From an uncultured virus (IMG/VR IMGVR_UViG_3300035034_004488) (taxonomy: Duplodnaviria > Heunggongvirae > Uroviricota > Caudoviricetes), in the IMG/VR virus record IMGVR_UViG_3300035034_004488: 64,000 nt of DNA. One strand, given 5' to 3'. The notes beneath the pieces are model-generated. The model was not told the DNA's origin, did no database searches, and saw only the letters and a program-made list of their open reading frames with translations. Below are positions 2,897-60,676 of the stretch, one piece after another. Positions within the stretch are counted from its first letter, which is position 1. Every line of letters begins with the position of its first letter. The position numbers were made by a program, and so were the translations under genes.

Positions 2897-3355
2897 ATGT
2901 ATAACAGGAAGAAACCCGCCCCCCCATGTCAGATCCTCATCCCCGCGCCGTGGCAACGCAAGCGGCGACAGAAGGCTCAGCAGCGTGCCCAAGTGGCGCA
3001 CACACATGTGGACATGAACCCGGAGTCCCGCACGAAGGGGTTCGTGCGCGCTGACGATGTGACACGGTTCGTCGAGGGGAGCCTCCAGGAGTCCACCGAG
3101 ATGTGGCAGAACCGAGACGTGAAGGACACCATCCAGGCGGGCCCCTCTGTGCACAAGGTGTGGGACACCGACACGCGTTCGACGCGTGAGATGCCCTCCT
3201 TGGCCGAGATGGCCCGGATGATGCGCGAGAGCTATGTAGAAGCCAACCCGGCAGAAATGGAGGTACCTTCTGGACGTCTACCGCGTCCGCCCCACAAGCC
3301 GGGAGACACTCTTGATGAGCCCGGCTTTTTGCTCGTCCCGAGCGAAGAGGAGTGA
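2897..3355 (+). CDS. Hypothetical protein
   Basis: 152-aa ORF with a GAGGGGG RBS-like stretch; stop abuts the patatin start. Confidence 0.65.
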   Translation: MYNRKKPAPPCQILIPAPWQRKRRQKAQQRAQVAHTHVDMNPESRTKGFVRADDVTRFVEGSLQESTEMWQNRDVKDTIQAGPSVHKVWDTDTRSTREMPSLAEMARMMRESYVEANPAEMEVPSGRLPRPPHKPGDTLDEPGFLLVPSEEE

Positions 3356-3359
3356 CCCC

Positions 3360-4154
3360 ATGAAGATCAAAGTCGTACTATCTGGCGCTGGCCTACTCTA
3401 CCCCCTCCATGCCGGTGCCCTCTGGTACCTCTCGGAACACGGGTACGAGATCGAACACATCACCGGCATCTCTGGCGGTGCCATCGTCGCCGCCTGTGTG
3501 GCGTCCGGACACGCACCGGGAGAGGAGCTAAACAACCTCTTGCTCGACATGCTCCCCGGACCCAACGATCTGATTGACTGGTCCTGGAAGCCCTGGTGCG
3601 ACTGGGGACTCATCAAGGGAGACAAGATTCTACGCAGGATGCGTACGATCTTTGCCCCTACCCTGGGAGATGCCACGATCCCGTGCAACATCGGGACGGT
3701 CAATCTCGAAGGCCTCAACCAGGAGGGTCGACACGTGATCTACTCCACCGAGGAGACTCCTACCGTCGGTATGGCGGAGGCCGTTCGTGCTTCGATCTCG
3801 ATCCCCTTCGTGTTTCGTCCTGCACGCCTCAACGACGAACGCCACATCGACGGCGGCGTGGCGTCGAACTTCCCCCTGGACATCTACGGGACCGGTGAGG
3901 GTGTGTTCGGTTTCCAAATCCGGCCCGTCGCGACCCCAACGCCTCCCAAGACGCTCAAGGAGTACGCCTTCACCGTGCTAGACATCATGATGGATGCCAT
4001 CTCCCGTGAGCACATCGAGGATGCGATGTTCGCGCGCATGGTCAACCTCCGCGCAGAAGGCTCTCTCGACTTCAACATGACACGAGAGACGGCCAACGAG
4101 CTGATCCTCAAGGGCTACCACCAAGCCCGCGTCGCGCTTACCAAAGAGGCTTGA
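3360..4154 (+). CDS. Patatin-like phospholipase
   Basis: LSGAG Gly loop, GISGG nucleophile motif, ASISIP and catalytic DGG. ATG 3360 (MKIKVVL) is preferred over the track start at 3312. Confidence 0.9.
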   Translation: MKIKVVLSGAGLLYPLHAGALWYLSEHGYEIEHITGISGGAIVAACVASGHAPGEELNNLLLDMLPGPNDLIDWSWKPWCDWGLIKGDKILRRMRTIFAPTLGDATIPCNIGTVNLEGLNQEGRHVIYSTEETPTVGMAEAVRASISIPFVFRPARLNDERHIDGGVASNFPLDIYGTGEGVFGFQIRPVATPTPPKTLKEYAFTVLDIMMDAISREHIEDAMFARMVNLRAEGSLDFNMTRETANELILKGYHQARVALTKEA

Positions 4155-23843: not shown

Positions 23844-23960
23844 AGCAGGCTCCGAGGGTCTTTGTGTTATCTTACACCTACTATATACCACAAGGAGAGC
23901 GGTGTGTAAAGACTTTCTACAGGGAACCTCCGCCCCAGAACGTGTCTTCAAGGGCTCCCA

Positions 23961-24719: not shown

Positions 24720-24784
24720 CTCATGCCTCCGTGTCCACGTTATACCTCCCATATACCACAAAAGACGGGTAACGTAAAGAATCT

Positions 24785-29780: not shown

Positions 29781-29830
29781 TGTGTCGTCTCTCACCTACT
29801 CTATACCACAAGGGTAGGGAGGTGTAAAAA
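29781..29830 (-). promoter_or_regulatory. Promoter-leader cassette (leftward)
   Basis: On the minus strand: TTTACA...CTTGTGGTATAGAGTAGGTGAGAGACGACACA. Confidence 0.75.
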
Positions 29831-29851: not shown

Positions 29852-29910
29852 GAGATAGTTTTTACGGACCCACGTGCTTGTGGTATATAGTAGGTGAGAG
29901 ACGACACAGA
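29852..29910 (+). promoter_or_regulatory. Promoter-leader cassette (rightward)
   Basis: GAGATAGTTTTTACG-N17-TATATA with TGTGG extended -10, then TAGGTGAGAGACGACACAGA. Confidence 0.75.
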
Positions 29911-32834: not shown

Positions 32835-32974
32835 TGCCGTCTCCGTGCTTGTCTGTGTGGTCTTACACATTCTATATACCACAAGGGTAGGGGGGACGTA
32901 AAACAGTCTCACGTCATTCGATCGGAAACATCCTGGGGACTTGAGAGCCTAAAACCACAACACGGCCTACGGCG

Positions 32975-39658: not shown

Positions 39659-40111
39659 ATGCAGACCAACATCAACGCCGCCGACATCAACGACACCAAC
39701 ATCTCTCAGACCCTCAAGGACGTGCCGAACTGGACCTTCAAGCACCTCGCGACGACCTCCTGGGAGCTTCGAGAGAAGCCCAAACTCATGGGCGCACTCC
39801 TCTACGCATGGGCCACCCACGGACAGCTCTCGGGAGACGCGGTGGAGAGGATGGCGGGACAGGCCTTCAAGGATGTCATGCAGCGCGCCACCCATGGCGT
39901 TCACCCTGAGAAGCTCATAGAGTTCGTCGGGGGGGAGATCTTCGTGACGACACCCGAGGTGACGAAGAAGCGGGGCTACGGCAACGGCTGGATGGTATGC
40001 TACGAGGCAGGCCCATCCAACTGGGGGGTGGGCGAGACCTGGAACTACAACAACCGGGAGGTCCTGTGTGAGACCTACTGGGGCTTCGACCTCCTCCTCA
40101 CGGCACACTGA
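39659..40111 (+). CDS. Hypothetical protein
   Basis: 150 aa with GAGGA RBS and a promoter-like TTTACA...TGGAGTATAG at 39598-39625. Confidence 0.7.
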   Translation: MQTNINAADINDTNISQTLKDVPNWTFKHLATTSWELREKPKLMGALLYAWATHGQLSGDAVERMAGQAFKDVMQRATHGVHPEKLIEFVGGEIFVTTPEVTKKRGYGNGWMVCYEAGPSNWGVGETWNYNNREVLCETYWGFDLLLTAH

Positions 40112-40130
40112 CACCTCACGGGGGAAAAGG

Positions 40131-40161
40131 TTTTACACCGAACCTCTCCTGTGGTATATAG
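40131..40161 (+). promoter_or_regulatory. Promoter-family copy
   Basis: TTTTACACCGAACCTCTCCTGTGGTATATAG. Confidence 0.7.
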
Positions 40162-40185
40162 ACAGCATGAACCCCCTACCAAAGG

Positions 40186-41301
40186 ATGCACACGATGTTT
40201 GAGACCAACGCCAAAGCGCTAAACGCCACCGTCAAGATCCTCAAGAAGCGCTACGGCACGGCGAAGAACGAAGCCCTGAAGGCGGCCTTCCTCTCTCAGG
40301 AGGTCCCTGGTGAGGTGCTCCTACGGGTGAGCCACCTCGACTCCGAGTGTCACCTCCGGATCGAAGGTGAGGGCACCCTCGACAAGGACGGCGGGGTGGC
40401 GCTGAGCTTCCTCTCGAAGCTCCTCGTCAAGGCAAAGAAAAGCCAGCTTCGATTGAGCGTCCAAACTGAGGTGTCCGAGGAGGACCCCGAGATCTCGACG
40501 ACCACGGTAGGTGTGGGATTCGGGACCTCGGACTTCACGGCGACGTCTATCAAAGAGCCCCTGGACTTCTTCCAGACGAACGCGAAGCCTTCCCAGACCC
40601 GCGCCGTCCCGCAGGAGGTGTTCAACGCCTTGAACCGTGCGAGCGCCTACGCCGCAAAGACCTACGGGCGCTCGCTGGACTACATTCAGCTCAAGTGTGA
40701 GGGGTCTCAGGTGACCGTCGTGGCTTCGGACGGTCACGCCCTCTACCACGAGCGAGTGGACGCAGACCTGAGCGGCATCCTGCCGGAGGATAGCCTCCTG
40801 TTGCATGGCAAGGACGTGACGTTGATGTCCAAGCTGTTCACCACGGGGGCGGAGGTCGCCTATGAGAACGGCTGGAGTAACTTCGAGGGCGGTCACGCGG
40901 TCGTGAAGCTCAAAGAGAACACCGAGCACTACCCAAACATCGCCTTCTTGCTCCGAGGACGCAGCAACGCAGTCACCATCACCGTCGACGTGGCTGAAAT
41001 GCTGGAGAAGGTCGAGCACGTTCTCCTGTGCGACTCCAAGCTCAAGGCGCTGACCCTCCGACACGAGGCGGGCACGCTCACCTTGAGCTGCGAAGGTACC
41101 AAGGCCTTCTCGGGTAGCGTCTCGGCGGAGGGTTCCAACACCACCTTCATGTGCAAGATCTCCCCCGCCCTCCTCAAAAAGGCCCTCCAGGGTCTCGAAG
41201 ACGGGGAGGTTGAGCTGGACTTCCTGGACGGCCTGTCTCCCCTAAACTTCAAACAAGAGAATCGCACGCTCCTGCTCATGCCCCTCTCCATCACGAGCTG
41301 A
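40186..41301 (+). CDS. Divergent DNA polymerase III beta sliding clamp-like protein
   Basis: 371 aa (clamp size). VVASDGHAL (cf. VATDGHRL), YPNIAFLL (cf. YPDY), LSPLNF and terminal LLMPL match DnaN landmarks. Confidence 0.8.
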   Translation: MHTMFETNAKALNATVKILKKRYGTAKNEALKAAFLSQEVPGEVLLRVSHLDSECHLRIEGEGTLDKDGGVALSFLSKLLVKAKKSQLRLSVQTEVSEEDPEISTTTVGVGFGTSDFTATSIKEPLDFFQTNAKPSQTRAVPQEVFNALNRASAYAAKTYGRSLDYIQLKCEGSQVTVVASDGHALYHERVDADLSGILPEDSLLLHGKDVTLMSKLFTTGAEVAYENGWSNFEGGHAVVKLKENTEHYPNIAFLLRGRSNAVTITVDVAEMLEKVEHVLLCDSKLKALTLRHEAGTLTLSCEGTKAFSGSVSAEGSNTTFMCKISPALLKKALQGLEDGEVELDFLDGLSPLNFKQENRTLLLMPLSITS

Positions 41302-41324
41302 GCACCCCTCAAGTGAGACGTGAG

Positions 41325-41687
41325 ATGAACGCACTCCAAAACGCCATTCCGAGTAACCTCACCCTGGAAGACGATACAGCCTGGAGAGGAGGCCTCACGA
41401 TAGCACGCGCGGCGTTCACGTTGTGCATCCCGCGCGCTTCAAGGCGGAAACGAGCCTACCACTATAGAAGCGTCCCAATGTCCCGCAAGCTCTTGCAGCT
41501 TGGCTTTGAGCGCCCCCGGCTAGAACGGAACTATACCACCGATGAGAGGTTCCTGGAGAGTTCGTGGGGGTCCATGCCGTACCAGTATACCGCGCCCGAC
41601 AGGTTCTCCCTGCCGGGCACCCAGGAGCCCTTGCTGGATGAGCAGCTCATGTACGCCCTCCACGAACACAAGGTCAACGCTCCCTGA
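41325..41687 (+). CDS. Hypothetical protein with family A-like C-terminus
   Basis: Ends LLDEQLMYALHEHKVN. Confidence 0.55.
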   Translation: MNALQNAIPSNLTLEDDTAWRGGLTIARAAFTLCIPRASRRKRAYHYRSVPMSRKLLQLGFERPRLERNYTTDERFLESSWGSMPYQYTAPDRFSLPGTQEPLLDEQLMYALHEHKVNAP

Positions 41688-41703
41688 GCTTCTCGTGAGA
41701 ATG

Positions 41704-41760
41704 TTTTTACGACTCAGAACCCTTGTGGTATATGAGAGGCGAGAGACGAAACGACACACC
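41704..41760 (+). promoter_or_regulatory. Promoter-leader cassette
   Basis: TTTTTACG...CTTGTGGTATATG...GAGAGACGAAACGACACACC. Confidence 0.75.
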
Positions 41761-41777
41761 AAAAGAGAGAAGACACC

Positions 41778-42122
41778 ATGACGACGCTTAACCTTACGCA
41801 GCACACCGGAACCAACGAGCAGGGCCTCTCTGAGCCCCTGGACAAGGACGCGGTTCGGGCGCTCCTGAACTTCGTCGACCTCCCCACGGCGGAGGAGGTC
41901 AAGGACCGGGCGGCCAAGCTCGCTGCCATGGCTGTCGGACACGACAAGGCCATGGTGGGGGGCGCGCCCTTCCTCATGGGCCCCCTCGTGGACGCCCTCA
42001 AGGCGGTGGGTGTCCAGCCGGTGTTCGCCTTCTCCAGGAGGGAGTCGAGCGAGGTCGTCCAGGACGACGGATCGGTGCGCAAGGTCGCGGTGTTCCGCCA
42101 CCTCGGCTTCGTGGACGGGTGA
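41778..42122 (+). CDS. Csx20-like small Rossmann-fold protein, candidate cyclic-oligoadenylate ring nuclease
   Basis: NLTQHTGTNEQ...MVGGAP...PVFAFSRRESSEVVQDDGSVRKVAVFRHLGF resembles the Csx20 consensus as I recall it; not searched. Confidence 0.55.
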   Translation: MTTLNLTQHTGTNEQGLSEPLDKDAVRALLNFVDLPTAEEVKDRAAKLAAMAVGHDKAMVGGAPFLMGPLVDALKAVGVQPVFAFSRRESSEVVQDDGSVRKVAVFRHLGFVDG

Positions 42123-42128
42123 GGCCCA

Positions 42129-43109
42129 TCAGCCCTGGATGAGTCCATGGTACGGGCTCTCCGGGTCGAGGCTCTCCAACAGGACGCGCCTCATGTACGT
42201 CCCGTTGCGAACCTGCTGACCTACAAGGACCCTCTCATGGTCCTTGAGGTTGTGGTGTAGGAGCCCCTTCGTAGGAGATGGTCGCTCACCACCCGCCCAG
42301 ATAACAGGTCCGGGGTGCATGATGTGCAGCTCCGGATATTCTTCCAGATCCGCATTCGTGAGCCACGATCTATCCACGTGAGGGCTCCCACGCTCGGTCT
42401 GAGGCCTCAAGGCCATGATCACATCGCACTGGTCGGGCATCTCTGAGCTGGTGATCTGCGTATAGGTCTCCAGAGGCCACGCCAAAAAAGCCTCGTAGCT
42501 CCCCGCGTTGAAGCCGGGCGTGTAGATCTCCATCCCAAATGCCCTCATCAGGTCCCGTACGCTGCGCGCCACGCGCGAGAACTCAACGTCCCCGACGATG
42601 CCCAGCTTCTTACCTCGCAACGCCGCCACGCTGCCATAGAGCCCCACCAGCGTCGCCAGATCTCCCAGGGCCTGCGTCGGATGATGTTGGGTACCGTTCC
42701 CCGCGTTGATGAAGGTGATCTCCGGGTAGGACTCCGAGAGCTTTTGAGTCAGGGTTGGGCGCCAGGGAGGACACGAAGATCGGATCACGACGACCGACGG
42801 CTCCGTGATCAGGATGGCGTTCTGTATCGCATCCTCAAAGCACTCCCCCTTGGTTTGGCTTGAGGAGGCTGGGAAGGAGACCACCGAGTAGCCAAGGTTG
42901 TGAGCGGCATGCTCAAAGCTCAGGTACGTTCGCGTAGACGGCTCCTCGAAGGCGAGCAGCACATGCTCGCCATTGGGCGGACGCAAAAGACCCCGGAGAG
43001 ATGGATCTCCAGGGTAGTCGTCGAGCACGCGAGTGAGGATGTCCAGGTCGAGGTTGGCAGGTGTGCTGAGGTGTGACACGAGGCGTCTCCGAGAGGGTAT
43101 AAAGTCCAC
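42129..43109 (-). CDS. pyrB: Aspartate carbamoyltransferase catalytic subunit
   Basis: FEEPSTRTYLSF, KGE, INAGNG..HPTQALGD, VGD...SRVARS, LRPQTER, MHPGP and QVRNG. Confidence 0.92.
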   Translation of the reverse strand: MDFIPSRRRLVSHLSTPANLDLDILTRVLDDYPGDPSLRGLLRPPNGEHVLLAFEEPSTRTYLSFEHAAHNLGYSVVSFPASSSQTKGECFEDAIQNAILITEPSVVVIRSSCPPWRPTLTQKLSESYPEITFINAGNGTQHHPTQALGDLATLVGLYGSVAALRGKKLGIVGDVEFSRVARSVRDLMRAFGMEIYTPGFNAGSYEAFLAWPLETYTQITSSEMPDQCDVIMALRPQTERGSPHVDRSWLTNADLEEYPELHIMHPGPVIWAGGERPSPTKGLLHHNLKDHERVLVGQQVRNGTYMRRVLLESLDPESPYHGLIQG

Positions 43110-43140
43110 AGACCCTATACCCCACCCATTCGGACGTCAA

Positions 43141-43488
43141 CTAGCCCCTGCGCCATTGGCCCGCTTCCATGAAGGCTTTGCGAACCGTCGAGATGAAGTC
43201 CTCGCACTGGAGGTGACGTCTTTCCGACCGGAGGTCTACCTCAGACGGACTGATAAGAGTGTCTGCCTCCCTGTTGTAGTCTTCCGCCCCCCATTCGTAT
43301 GTGAACCCCTTAGCATCACGCAGAACCACGCGAGGGCGCGGTCTTGCTACGTAGGGCATCGAGAGTGTGGGTATCGAATCCTGGCTGAACCAGACTATCA
43401 CTAGAGGGCTGCGGGACATGACCGATTTCAGGTTGGGAATGCACACGAACGGCCCATCACACCGGATACCAAAGGGGTAGTCGCTCAT
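43141..43488 (-). CDS. Hypothetical protein
   Basis: MSDYPFG... with GGAGGAG RBS. Shares a C-terminal AFxEAGxWRRG with the adjacent gene. Confidence 0.6.
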   Translation of the reverse strand: MSDYPFGIRCDGPFVCIPNLKSVMSRSPLVIVWFSQDSIPTLSMPYVARPRPRVVLRDAKGFTYEWGAEDYNREADTLISPSEVDLRSERRHLQCEDFISTVRKAFMEAGQWRRG

Positions 43489-43676
43489 CCTCTCCTCCAC
43501 AGACCTGCTTCGAGGAACGCGGCGCGCACCTCGGCCGTAAAACGGTCAACCTCTTCCAGGAGATCCTCGATATGCGGGCCATGGAAGAGCCAGCCCCGTG
43601 AAGCCACGTGCGGCACCGCTATGCGCACTTTAACGCTCCAAACCTCGTTATGCTCGCACGCCATACGAGTGATCAC
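43485..43676 (-). CDS. Hypothetical protein, short paralog of the downstream gene's C-terminus
   Basis: Ends VRAAFLEAGLWRRG, versus VRKAFMEAGQWRRG in 43141..43488. Confidence 0.55.
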   Translation of the reverse strand: MITRMACEHNEVWSVKVRIAVPHVASRGWLFHGPHIEDLLEEVDRFTAEVRAAFLEAGLWRRG

Positions 43677-43821
43677 CGGTGGGAGGTTGCCAGGAAGCCA
43701 CCATTCCTACTCTACCATATCCCCGCCGAAGTACGGAGGACCATCCGCCTTCTCGTCCTGCTCAAAGCCTTTCAAGGCTACGTAGAGCCCGTCGTTTCGT
43801 ACTCGATCAGACACGATCACC

Positions 43822-44784
43822 TCACCACGAAATGTCAATATCATAGCCCCGGTCAGCATCTGCCAAGGCGTGGGCATCCATGTCCAGAGCCTCCTGGAGA
43901 GTCGACCGAACGAGTTCGACCAGCTCCGGCTCCAGGGCGCGGTACGCCTGCCAGATGTCCTCTCCCAAAAGCATCCTTGACAGCCATGATGATGTCAAGG
44001 AGGCCAGAAGCGTGTCCAAGCACTCCAGCTCCATCACGAGGTCTTCGAGGTCCGCAGAATCTTCGACCGCGAAGACGCCTTCCGAATCAGATCTCAGAAC
44101 GTTGAGCATGTTCCATCGAGACGCGAGCGACGCCATCGCCTCTTTCATATGCTCTATGGACATGGGGCGGTCGCGCACAAAGCTCCTCCAGATGTGATCT
44201 CCAACGAGCCATTCATCCATTTGAGCGGTGTCCAAGAAGGTCTCAGATAGAGTCTCCCGAGCACGGGGACGATCCACACCAACGATCGTCGCCGCAAGGC
44301 CTACGCCGAACCGAAAATACTGACCGGACGCGTTCCAGAGGGTTGCTACAGGAGGGGTACGCAGATCGCTTGCCATCTGAGGGATCTCCCGCAGGTGGTA
44401 GTGGATCTGATCGAAGATCTGAACACGAGTCAAATTGACGAGTGAACGTGCGTCCTGGAAGTCCACCCCTCCCAGAAACAGAGGGGGCATCAGGGCTTCC
44501 TCTGACCAGTACATCGCCACGGACAACGCCGAGCCAAGGGTGAGGTTGCGGGTTTGGAGCTTATCCCCCATCTCCTCCAGGGTACCCGCGAGCGCGCGAC
44601 CGCGACCACGTACATAGGAGCGCACCGTTTCGTTCGTGGAGTGACGAGCGCACATGAGCAAGTCCCACTGCTGGAGCGTCTCAAAGGTGTTCGTGGGCCG
44701 TTGGCCCATCAGGCTGCGAACCTCTCCGAAGTCGGCGTACCGGGCATTTGCTTCCTGGACGAGTCTCTCTTTTCGCGTAGTCAT
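43822..44784 (-). CDS. Hypothetical protein with family B-like FGEVRSLM motif
   Basis: 320 aa with AGGAG RBS and TTGACC-N17-TAACAC upstream. Confidence 0.7.
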   Translation of the reverse strand: MTTRKERLVQEANARYADFGEVRSLMGQRPTNTFETLQQWDLLMCARHSTNETVRSYVRGRGRALAGTLEEMGDKLQTRNLTLGSALSVAMYWSEEALMPPLFLGGVDFQDARSLVNLTRVQIFDQIHYHLREIPQMASDLRTPPVATLWNASGQYFRFGVGLAATIVGVDRPRARETLSETFLDTAQMDEWLVGDHIWRSFVRDRPMSIEHMKEAMASLASRWNMLNVLRSDSEGVFAVEDSADLEDLVMELECLDTLLASLTSSWLSRMLLGEDIWQAYRALEPELVELVRSTLQEALDMDAHALADADRGYDIDISW

Positions 44785-46475: not shown

Positions 46476-46620
46476 CGCTCTCTCCTTGGGTTGCAGTACG
46501 GCACCTATATACCACAAGACTGGGACGAGGTAAAAGAAAGACGAGTGATAATCGCCTTGTATCAGCGTCTAGACGTGAGATCCCAAAAGACGATACCCCA
46601 CCAGATAGAGGACATGAACC

Positions 46621-48629: not shown

Positions 48630-48693
48630 GAGATAGTTTTTACGGTCTGGGTCTCTTGTGGTATATGGTGTGTGTAAGACGACACAGACACCG
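48630..48693 (+). promoter_or_regulatory. Promoter-leader cassette
   Basis: GAGATAGTTTTTACGG...CTTGTGGTATATGGTGTGTGTAAGACGACACAGACACC. Confidence 0.75.
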
Positions 48694-53154: not shown

Positions 53155-53292
53155 CTCTGTCTCCTTTCGCTAGGTTCAAGCTCTATATACCACAAGGTAG
53201 AGGCCTTGTAAAAAGAAAGACCCTCGGTTAATGTCTTTATATGTCAGTCGATATGTGACAGACATCCATGCTTTTCCCGCGTTGAGGCACCC

Positions 53293-58517: not shown

Positions 58518-58575
58518 GGTGTGTCGTTTCGTCTTACACACACCATATACCACAAGCAGGAGCGCCCGTAAAAAA
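58518..58575 (-). promoter_or_regulatory. Promoter-leader cassette
   Basis: On the minus strand: TTTTTACGG...CTTGTGGTATATGGTGTGTGTAAGACGAAACGACACACC. Confidence 0.75.
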
Positions 58576-60602: not shown

Positions 60603-60676
60603 TTCTCTCTCCCTCGTGTGGTGTGCTGTCTCTCACCACTCATATACCACAGGGACGGCAGAGCGTAAAAAGAATC

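Follow-up and report, generated by a model that had tools for sequence, protein, structure and literature searches.

Locus and gene

The window, as we call the whole 64,000-nucleotide stretch of DNA analysed here from the uncultured virus IMGVR_UViG_3300035034_004488, carries a small gene whose 114-aa product belongs by profile comparison to the family of Csx20, a ring nuclease that acts on cyclic tetra-adenylate (cA4). By analogy with Csx20, a phage-borne gene of this kind is probably a counter-defence gene. The open reading frame (ORF), taken from the sequence and an ORF list, begins with ATG and ends with TGA. Its translation has an N-terminal motif H9-T-G-T12-N-E14-Q15, a central motif A-M-V-G61-G62-A-P-F-L-M, and a C-terminal motif P81-VFAFSRRESSEVVQDDGSVRKVAVFRHLGF that runs to F111. 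The ORF and the motifs quoted for it in a first-pass annotation of the window (H-x-x-T-x-E-Q, GG and PVFAFSRR..GF) are all present. At E<=1e-3 the protein is matched by 363 database proteins, and in an alignment of 50 sequences the columns T7, Q8, H9, Q15, F32, P36, G61, G62, A63, M67, L70, A84, R88, E89, G98, K102, F106 and H108 are invariant. Because the ORF has these relatives and its quoted motifs coincide with invariant columns, it was accepted as a real gene of the plus strand. A longer antisense ORF (41520..42101, minus strand) was rejected as a by-product of the G+C content of the window, which is 59-60%.

The gene on the 5' side of the csx20-like ORF stops at 41687 and the gene on its 3' side lies on the minus strand in convergent orientation, so that the ORF forms a single-gene unit with its own promoter. 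In a test for association with an aca gene it was likewise monocistronic: its 3' neighbour is the convergent aspartate carbamoyltransferase (ATCase)-like gene, and no gene with a helix-turn-helix (HTH) or ribbon-helix-helix (RHH) domain is adjacent. A 124-aa ORF upstream of it had no Pfam or PHROG match.

Family assignment and conserved residues

The NCBIfam model NF040559 (CAS_Csx20) matches the protein with an E-value of 8e-8 and 32.7 bits, aligning aa 46-111 to positions 56-121 of the 124 in the profile, and three PADLOC Csx20 models match it as well (PDLC01384, 1.3e-7; PDLC01659, 2.6e-5; PDLC01038, 4.9e-4). All 50 aligned members of the subfamily are matched by NF040559, with a best E-value of 2.1e-10; the matches to the canonical set (60 of 60, best 2.7e-50) are far stronger. 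The precomputed Pfam family PF27247.1, named 'MJ1673' in the Atlas, where the aligned part 'meets the bar for a name', is assigned to the window protein and to all 120 relatives listed. PF27247 is also found on relatives of canonical Csx20, and Methanocaldococcus jannaschii is the one control genome with an NF040559 match above the cut-off. Searches of a Pfam release without PF27247 gave no family at E<=1, the only PHROG found was phrog_10594 at E 0.19, and a sequence search of the PDB returned designed armadillo repeats as its best match (E 0.09) and no Csx20 structure.

When a single canonical sequence was compared with the subfamily profile, only the C-terminal 39 columns were aligned (77.9%), so a canonical alignment was needed for a full-length test. 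The seed was a Bacteroidota Csx20 of 131 aa that scores 89.7 bits on NF040559 and has 344 relatives at E<=1e-3 among 1.84 billion representatives, 60 stand-alone ones of which were aligned. In hhalign the subfamily profile (50 sequences) and the canonical profile (60 sequences) matched at 99.0% with an E-value of 3.6e-18 over 121 columns, spanning window residues 1-114 and canonical residues 1-131. With four Csx20 profile models and this full-length match in agreement, the window protein is, as judged from sequence profiles, a true homologue of Csx20 (MJ1673 family, PF27247), as the first-pass annotation had supposed from known Csx20 motifs. The canonical consensus derived from the 60 sequences, FSHxLTxxQ and YATTxRxxxExxxxDGxVxKxxxFKHVRF, bears those motifs out and also includes LIQGDxGAT.

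A joint alignment shows identical residues wherever a column is conserved at 90% or more in each of the two groups: H9/H7, Q15/Q13, G62/G77, R88/R103, F106/F121 and H108/H123 in window/canonical numbering. In addition, S86 stands opposite canonical T101, and the stretch D97-G98-x-x-x-K102 is preserved. Private invariants of the subfamily are T7, Q8, G61, A63, M67, F85, E89 and V112. The canonical residue is F at T7, S or N at Q8 (S6, 82% S and otherwise N), Q at G61, D or E at A63 (D/E78), T at F85 (T100) and R at V112 (R127, 92%), and the position of E89 is variable. On these sequence comparisons the window protein is placed in a separate, virus-rich subfamily that is distinct from the CRISPR-linked Csx20.

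Among the relatives of canonical Csx20, all 11 long ones (563-678 aa; P0143, P0158, P0167, P0178, P0179, P0197, P0203, P0230, P0234, P0246 and P0266) consist of Csx1 CARF-HEPN followed at the C-terminus by a Csx20 domain, as one would expect of a cA4-activated nuclease that limits its own action. These fusions were recognised with the PADLOC model PDLC01843, which resolved all 11; Pfam, run on six, found Csx1_CARF in one. A further relative of 324 aa (P0133) has an N-terminal NUDIX domain (Pfam, 7e-7). Canonical Csx20 was absent at E<=1e-5 from 401 cyanobacterial genomes. A sample of 401 Bacteroidota genomes had one canonical Csx20, located beside BREX genes (PglZ, BrxL) and an NsnB/GajA-like ATPase (L175:1-9300); its immediate same-strand neighbours had no NCBIfam or PADLOC match, and 20 other genomes of this sample had sub-threshold Csx20-like matches only.

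Predicted structure

The AlphaFold2 (AF2) model of the monomer (pLDDT 95.4, pTM 0.83) has a CARF-like Rossmann-type core followed by a long C-terminal beta-hairpin, the order of elements being strand, two helices, strand, helix and hairpin. A model of canonical Csx20 (pLDDT 97.2) has the same order with one extra helix after the first strand. When the top 1000 Foldseek matches of the window protein were re-examined, 16 of the 20 top rows were CARF or SAVED structures, either receptors of cyclic oligoadenylates (cOA) or ring nucleases, aligned over residues 1-114. Z values were 5.5 for Csm6, 5.3 for Cam1, 5.2 for the Crn1 protein Sso2081, and 5.0 for both Sis0455 and Can2. The canonical Csx20 model, used as a control, matched the same CARF/SAVED structures. 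In BFVD the matches were unnamed viral relatives only.

Distribution of the subfamily

Relatives of the window protein are encoded by 177 stretches in IMG/VR, and the nearest Atlas clusters are 50-82% viral. Rhodothermus phage RM378 has a copy (Rm378p002) with 42% identity at 99% coverage and the motifs NLTQH, GGAP and FRH. Pasteurella phage Pm86 carries the subfamily motifs MVGGAPF, YAFSQRE and FKH, and directly after its Csx20-like ORF lies a 71-aa RHH-like ORF, an arrangement that fits the published csx20-aca14 layout. The Pm86 ORF is unannotated and lies at the record end, where only its C-terminal 66 aa are readable (L177:309-699). In viral contigs the recurrent neighbours of subfamily genes are helicases, SNF2, primase-polymerase, AAA_24, DUF669, NinG, ParB and terminase.

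In cellular genomes the subfamily is rare and patchy: 71 loci were found with one genome per species for 185,579 species. Counted from record titles, 25 of these are from Patescibacteria and four from archaea. At fourteen Patescibacteria loci (e.g. L096:3664-4032) the gene has the same surroundings, namely a TrmB-like regulator of about 260 aa together with ClpP, trigger factor and RNase Y. A core housekeeping role in Patescibacteria, which this context had suggested, was rejected when the gene was found in one of 301 sampled genomes, that one being the seed. These Patescibacteria loci may mark a conserved hot spot of the chromosome at which the gene forms an islet, and its TrmB-like neighbour might conceivably have an Aca-like role.

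Among carriers other than Patescibacteria, Cas10 was found above the cut-off in two of five. In a Synergistaceae metagenome-assembled genome (MAG), a Cas10/Csm1 gene (458 bits) and a copy with 52% identity to the window protein are separated by about 13 kb on the same contig. The copy makes up aa 454-568, the C-terminal portion, of a 580-aa ORF that is free of interruptions (L178:15437-17179, plus strand). Residues 220-424 of this ORF resemble WYL-domain regulators (PafBC 6sj9, E 1.4e-10), and its product may be a transcription regulator that senses cOA or resets itself. Nine longer forms of the subfamily (203-242 aa) have no second Pfam domain, and the subfamily yielded no long fusion to Csx1. 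Thus at least one genome links the subfamily to type III signalling, and in others it occurs without such signalling.

Promoter class and leader

The csx20-like gene follows a promoter-leader cassette, reported by the first-pass annotation and present in the sequence. Position 41704 is the first base of TTTTTACG, in which a -35 element TTTACG (41706-41711) is separated by a 17-nt spacer from an extended -10 element TG-G-TATATG (41726-41734). The likeness of this element to sigma-70 promoters points to a promoter function. The pattern TTTAC-N10-14-YKGTGGTATA has 12 matches in the window, with 0.00 expected from 100 shuffles, and the core GTGGTATA occurs 16 times. Two divergent promoter pairs are formed by members of the class, at 29802/29861 and near 58.5 kb, and the same motif precedes the sliding-clamp gene at 40186. 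A generic sigma-70 scan of 41000-43500 called no promoters; it missed the csx20-like promoter because the -10 element ends in G. The sigma-70 likeness also suggests that the class may be expressed early.

The leader contains the recurrent stretch GAGAGACGAAACGACACAC (41741-41759) and a weak purine-rich run resembling a Shine-Dalgarno sequence, AGAGAGAAG (41763-41771); other genes of the promoter class have GGAG 7-9 nt 5' of the ATG. By eye, a similar purine-rich leader, G(A/T)(G/A)AGAC..ACACA, follows about eight of the 12 promoters. The features of the window are collected in Table 1.

Table 1. Features of the 64,000-nucleotide window, with position, strand and the basis of each assignment
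Feature	Position	Strand	Basis
Csx20/MJ1673-family (PF27247) CDS, stand-alone, CARF-like, virus-rich subfamily; candidate cA4 ring nuclease	41778..42122	+	profiles, conserved residues, AF2 model
Putative promoter of the phage's recurrent class (csx20-like gene)	41704..41734	+	likeness to sigma-70
Leader / 5' UTR	41735..41777	+	sequence read; aligned promoter instances
ATCase-like gene	42129..43109	-	profile matches
Patatin-like phospholipase	3312-4154	+	Pfam PF01734, E 4e-28
Promoter-class site	23884-23910	-	pattern match
Promoter-class site	24752-24778	-	pattern match
Promoter-class site	29802-29828	-	pattern match
Promoter-class site	29861-29887	+	pattern match
Promoter-class site	32875-32902	-	pattern match
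Promoter-class site	40132-40158	+	pattern match
Promoter-class site (csx20-like gene)	41706-41732	+	pattern match
Promoter-class site	46508-46534	-	pattern match
Promoter-class site	48639-48665	+	pattern match
Promoter-class site	53186-53212	-	pattern match
Promoter-class site	58546-58572	-	pattern match
Promoter-class site	60643-60669	-	pattern match

Phage setting

In the database, the 114-aa protein is recorded from a contig of 373,477 bp, of which the window is a part, and the window seems to come from a very large phage of unfamiliar type. Its recognisable genes encode a fused topoisomerase II, thymidylate synthase (ThyA), dTMP kinase, a metallophosphoesterase, a sliding clamp (phrog_947, E 4e-22), the ATCase-like protein and a patatin-like phospholipase. 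The ATCase-like protein scores 158 bits on NF002032 against a cut-off of 263; its OTCace_N domain is clear (1.3e-21) and its Asp/Orn-binding domain barely detectable. On these profile matches it is a divergent phage PyrB-like enzyme. By Pfam and PHROG scans of the window ORFs the genome is very dark: Pfam at E<=1e-4 recognises no family in 59 of 60 further ORFs of at least 100 aa, and among 34 large ORFs 29 match no PHROG at 1e-5. Scans of the window for tRNA genes and Rfam families gave no matches, and a megablast search of 40000-44000 against 50,697 phage records gave none either. The window has no virion genes, so that the label 'phage' rests on gene content and the repeated promoter.

As the first-pass annotation had stated, there is no CRISPR locus nearby. 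The window holds no CRISPR-type repeat array, no Cas family, Cas10 included, was found among 67 window ORFs scanned with Pfam, and within these 64 kb of the contig the csx20-like gene is neither in nor beside a type III CRISPR-Cas locus.

Proposed function and alternatives

According to the biochemical account of the family in Hoikkala 2025 (PMC12409355), Csx20 fully degrades cA4, and degrades cyclic tri-adenylate (cA3) at a tenfold higher enzyme concentration. The same source finds Csx20 in 80 type III loci, more than any other stand-alone ring nuclease, and reports that hidden Markov models for it matched five of 28,114 phage genomes. Our preferred interpretation, which we give a probability of roughly 0.6, is that the window protein acts, by analogy with this enzyme, as a dimeric cA4 ring nuclease in counter-defence against host type III CRISPR signalling. 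The gene would be transcribed from its recurrent sigma-70-like promoter, and the protein would form a homodimer that binds cA4, perhaps also cA3, made by the host Cas10 upon detection of phage RNA. Cleavage of the ring to linear products would follow, and CARF/SAVED effectors such as Csx1, Csm6 and Can2 would then never be switched on. This mechanism is proposed because the protein is homologous to the biochemically characterised Csx20; it is from that homology that we infer dimerisation, ligand, catalysis and the anti-CRISPR role.

Several observations weigh against a ring nuclease directed at type III signalling. Ring-nuclease activity of the subfamily is argued by analogy with canonical Csx20, and the NF040559 score of the window protein lies below the equivalog cut-off of 70 bits, which makes it a member of a sister subfamily and not a canonical Csx20. 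A quick tree divides the two groups by one long branch (SH-aLRT 100), each set having been picked by likeness to its own seed with intermediates left unsampled. Some canonical residues are replaced by other invariants, a change that could alter or abolish catalysis or specificity. The structural matches are modest: Foldseek against the PDB gave no match at E<=1e-3 (Crn1 Sso2081 at rank 4, E 0.086), and the CARF Z values are at most 5.5. In a wide structural search the best Z, 6.8, belonged to glutamate racemase, a generic Rossmann-like match, with the CARF rows at 4.5-5.3. A Cas10 match was found in none of five Patescibacteria carriers, so the presence of the family in a genome does not require type III CRISPR there. 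At the locus itself the csx20-like gene is accompanied by no aca-type regulator and its neighbours, the sliding clamp and the ATCase-like gene, belong to nucleotide and DNA metabolism.

Alternatively, the protein might bind cOA without turnover, as a sponge that sequesters the signal or as a sensor domain. Close to the conserved site several canonical polar residues have given way to others (S6 to Q8, D/E78 to A63, R127 to V112), and the place of the subfamily domain at the C-terminal end of the 580-aa WYL ORF is what one would expect of a domain that senses a ligand. A sponge has also been raised for Csx15, in the discussion of that family by Hoikkala et al. (PMC12409355). We nevertheless consider binding without turnover rather unlikely, given that 50 of 50 members retain the two invariant histidines together with the arginine and lysine, more than binding alone usually needs, that the characterised family member is an enzyme, and that a 114-aa protein with one site per dimer would be needed in very large amounts. 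An active ring nuclease with another target, whether cA3, other cyclic oligonucleotides of the CBASS type or a broadened specificity, appears unlikely: one subfamily copy lies near Cas10/Csm1, and the single relative that has been characterised acts specifically on cA4 when the enzyme concentration is low. In its favour are the action of canonical Csx20 on cA3 at higher enzyme concentration (PMC12409355), the subfamily-specific invariants that adjoin the shared residues, and the carriers without Cas10 among Patescibacteria. A further and tentative possibility, fairly unlikely in our estimate, is that the virus-rich subfamily as a whole may be a functionally shifted branch, with a different or broader substrate range (cA3, cA6, CBASS signals) or a much faster rate. 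Its private T7, Q8, G61, A63 and E89 stand beside the shared His/Gln/Arg/His set, and such a shift would explain its spread in phages and in Cas10-less Patescibacteria and DPANN genomes, as well as the WYL fusion in a type III-bearing MAG.

A role outside counter-defence, as a small nucleotide-binding protein for phage DNA or nucleotide metabolism or its regulation, is suggested by the company the gene keeps, with the sliding clamp, ATCase-like, ThyA, dTMP kinase and topoisomerase II genes in the window and replication genes around its relatives in viral contigs. One relative (P0116) is labelled 'predicted Rossmann-fold nucleotide-binding protein', and generic Rossmann-like enzymes top the wide structural search. 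Against this, early or replication regions are common locations of phage anti-defence genes. The full-length profile homology is specifically to Csx20, with the best-conserved residues kept, and the spread of the gene is sporadic and accessory (one of 301 Patescibacteria; 71 loci among the genomes of 185,579 species). We therefore regard a metabolic role as quite unlikely, the more so as csx20 homologues of other phages are described in acr-like operons (PMC13551039). The protein might finally regulate a cOA-signalling system that the phage itself encodes elsewhere on its contig. The window covers 64 kb of the 373,477 bp, and some very large phages carry CRISPR-Cas systems, but neither a CRISPR array in the window nor a Cas family among its Pfam-scanned ORFs was found, and we hold such a role to be very improbable.

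Known systems and significance

Canonical Csx20, the cA4 ring nuclease of type III loci, resembles the window protein in size class, element order, full-length profile and the conserved H/Q/G/R/F/H and DG...K residues. The window protein differs in scoring below the family cut-off, in falling into a separate clade with its own invariants, and in lacking the first helix, and its gene is carried by a phage and is not beside a CRISPR locus. Phage and prophage csx20 homologues are known from RM378, Pm86 and the Pasteurella csx20-aca14 operons; these share with the window gene the virus-type subfamily and the proposed role. In the part of the literature concerned with the latter, Pasteurella multocida csx20 homologues are reported in acr-like operons with the RHH regulator Aca14, and phage csx20 homologues are proposed to be cas genes co-opted for counter-defence (NAR 2026, PMC13551039). 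Because Pm86 has both the subfamily motifs and an RHH-like ORF, the published Pasteurella case and the window gene belong together. Unlike the Pasteurella genes, the window gene has no adjacent RHH or HTH aca and uses the general promoter class of its phage, which is much larger than the other phages and has an unrelated genome.

AcrIII-1/Crn2 (DUF1874) is like the window protein in its proposed job, being a small dimeric phage enzyme that destroys cA4, in the description of Hoikkala 2025 (PMC12409355). It belongs to an unrelated family: the 114-aa protein has no DUF1874 match in Pfam and none among the fold matches listed, which bears out the distinction that the first-pass annotation drew. 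The fold of AcrIII-1 differs from that of Csx20. The CARF-domain ring nucleases of the Crn1 type (Sso2081, Sis0455) are among the closest known systems. A viral SAVED-domain ring nuclease, as presented in Biochem J 2025 (PMC12751052), is another virus-encoded cA4-degrading enzyme derived from a defence sensor fold; it has a SAVED domain and is not of the Csx20 family. The idea of a viral Csx20 as an anti-CRISPR is not new, since it is already in print (PMC12409355, PMC13551039). In the parts of the literature on Csx20 and phage-encoded cA4 ring nucleases that were at hand, no experimental test of a viral Csx20 was found. The differences at the level of the subfamily are the only part that might repay work.

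If active, the window protein would represent another phage theft of the off-switch of the host's type III CRISPR system, by way of a family other than AcrIII-1. In scale, the 177 IMG/VR relatives and 363 database proteins at E<=1e-3 compare with five phage genomes in print, going by the phage survey of Hoikkala 2025 (PMC12409355). The window copy itself adds little further; the function of one member of the subfamily would bear on hundreds of phage genes.

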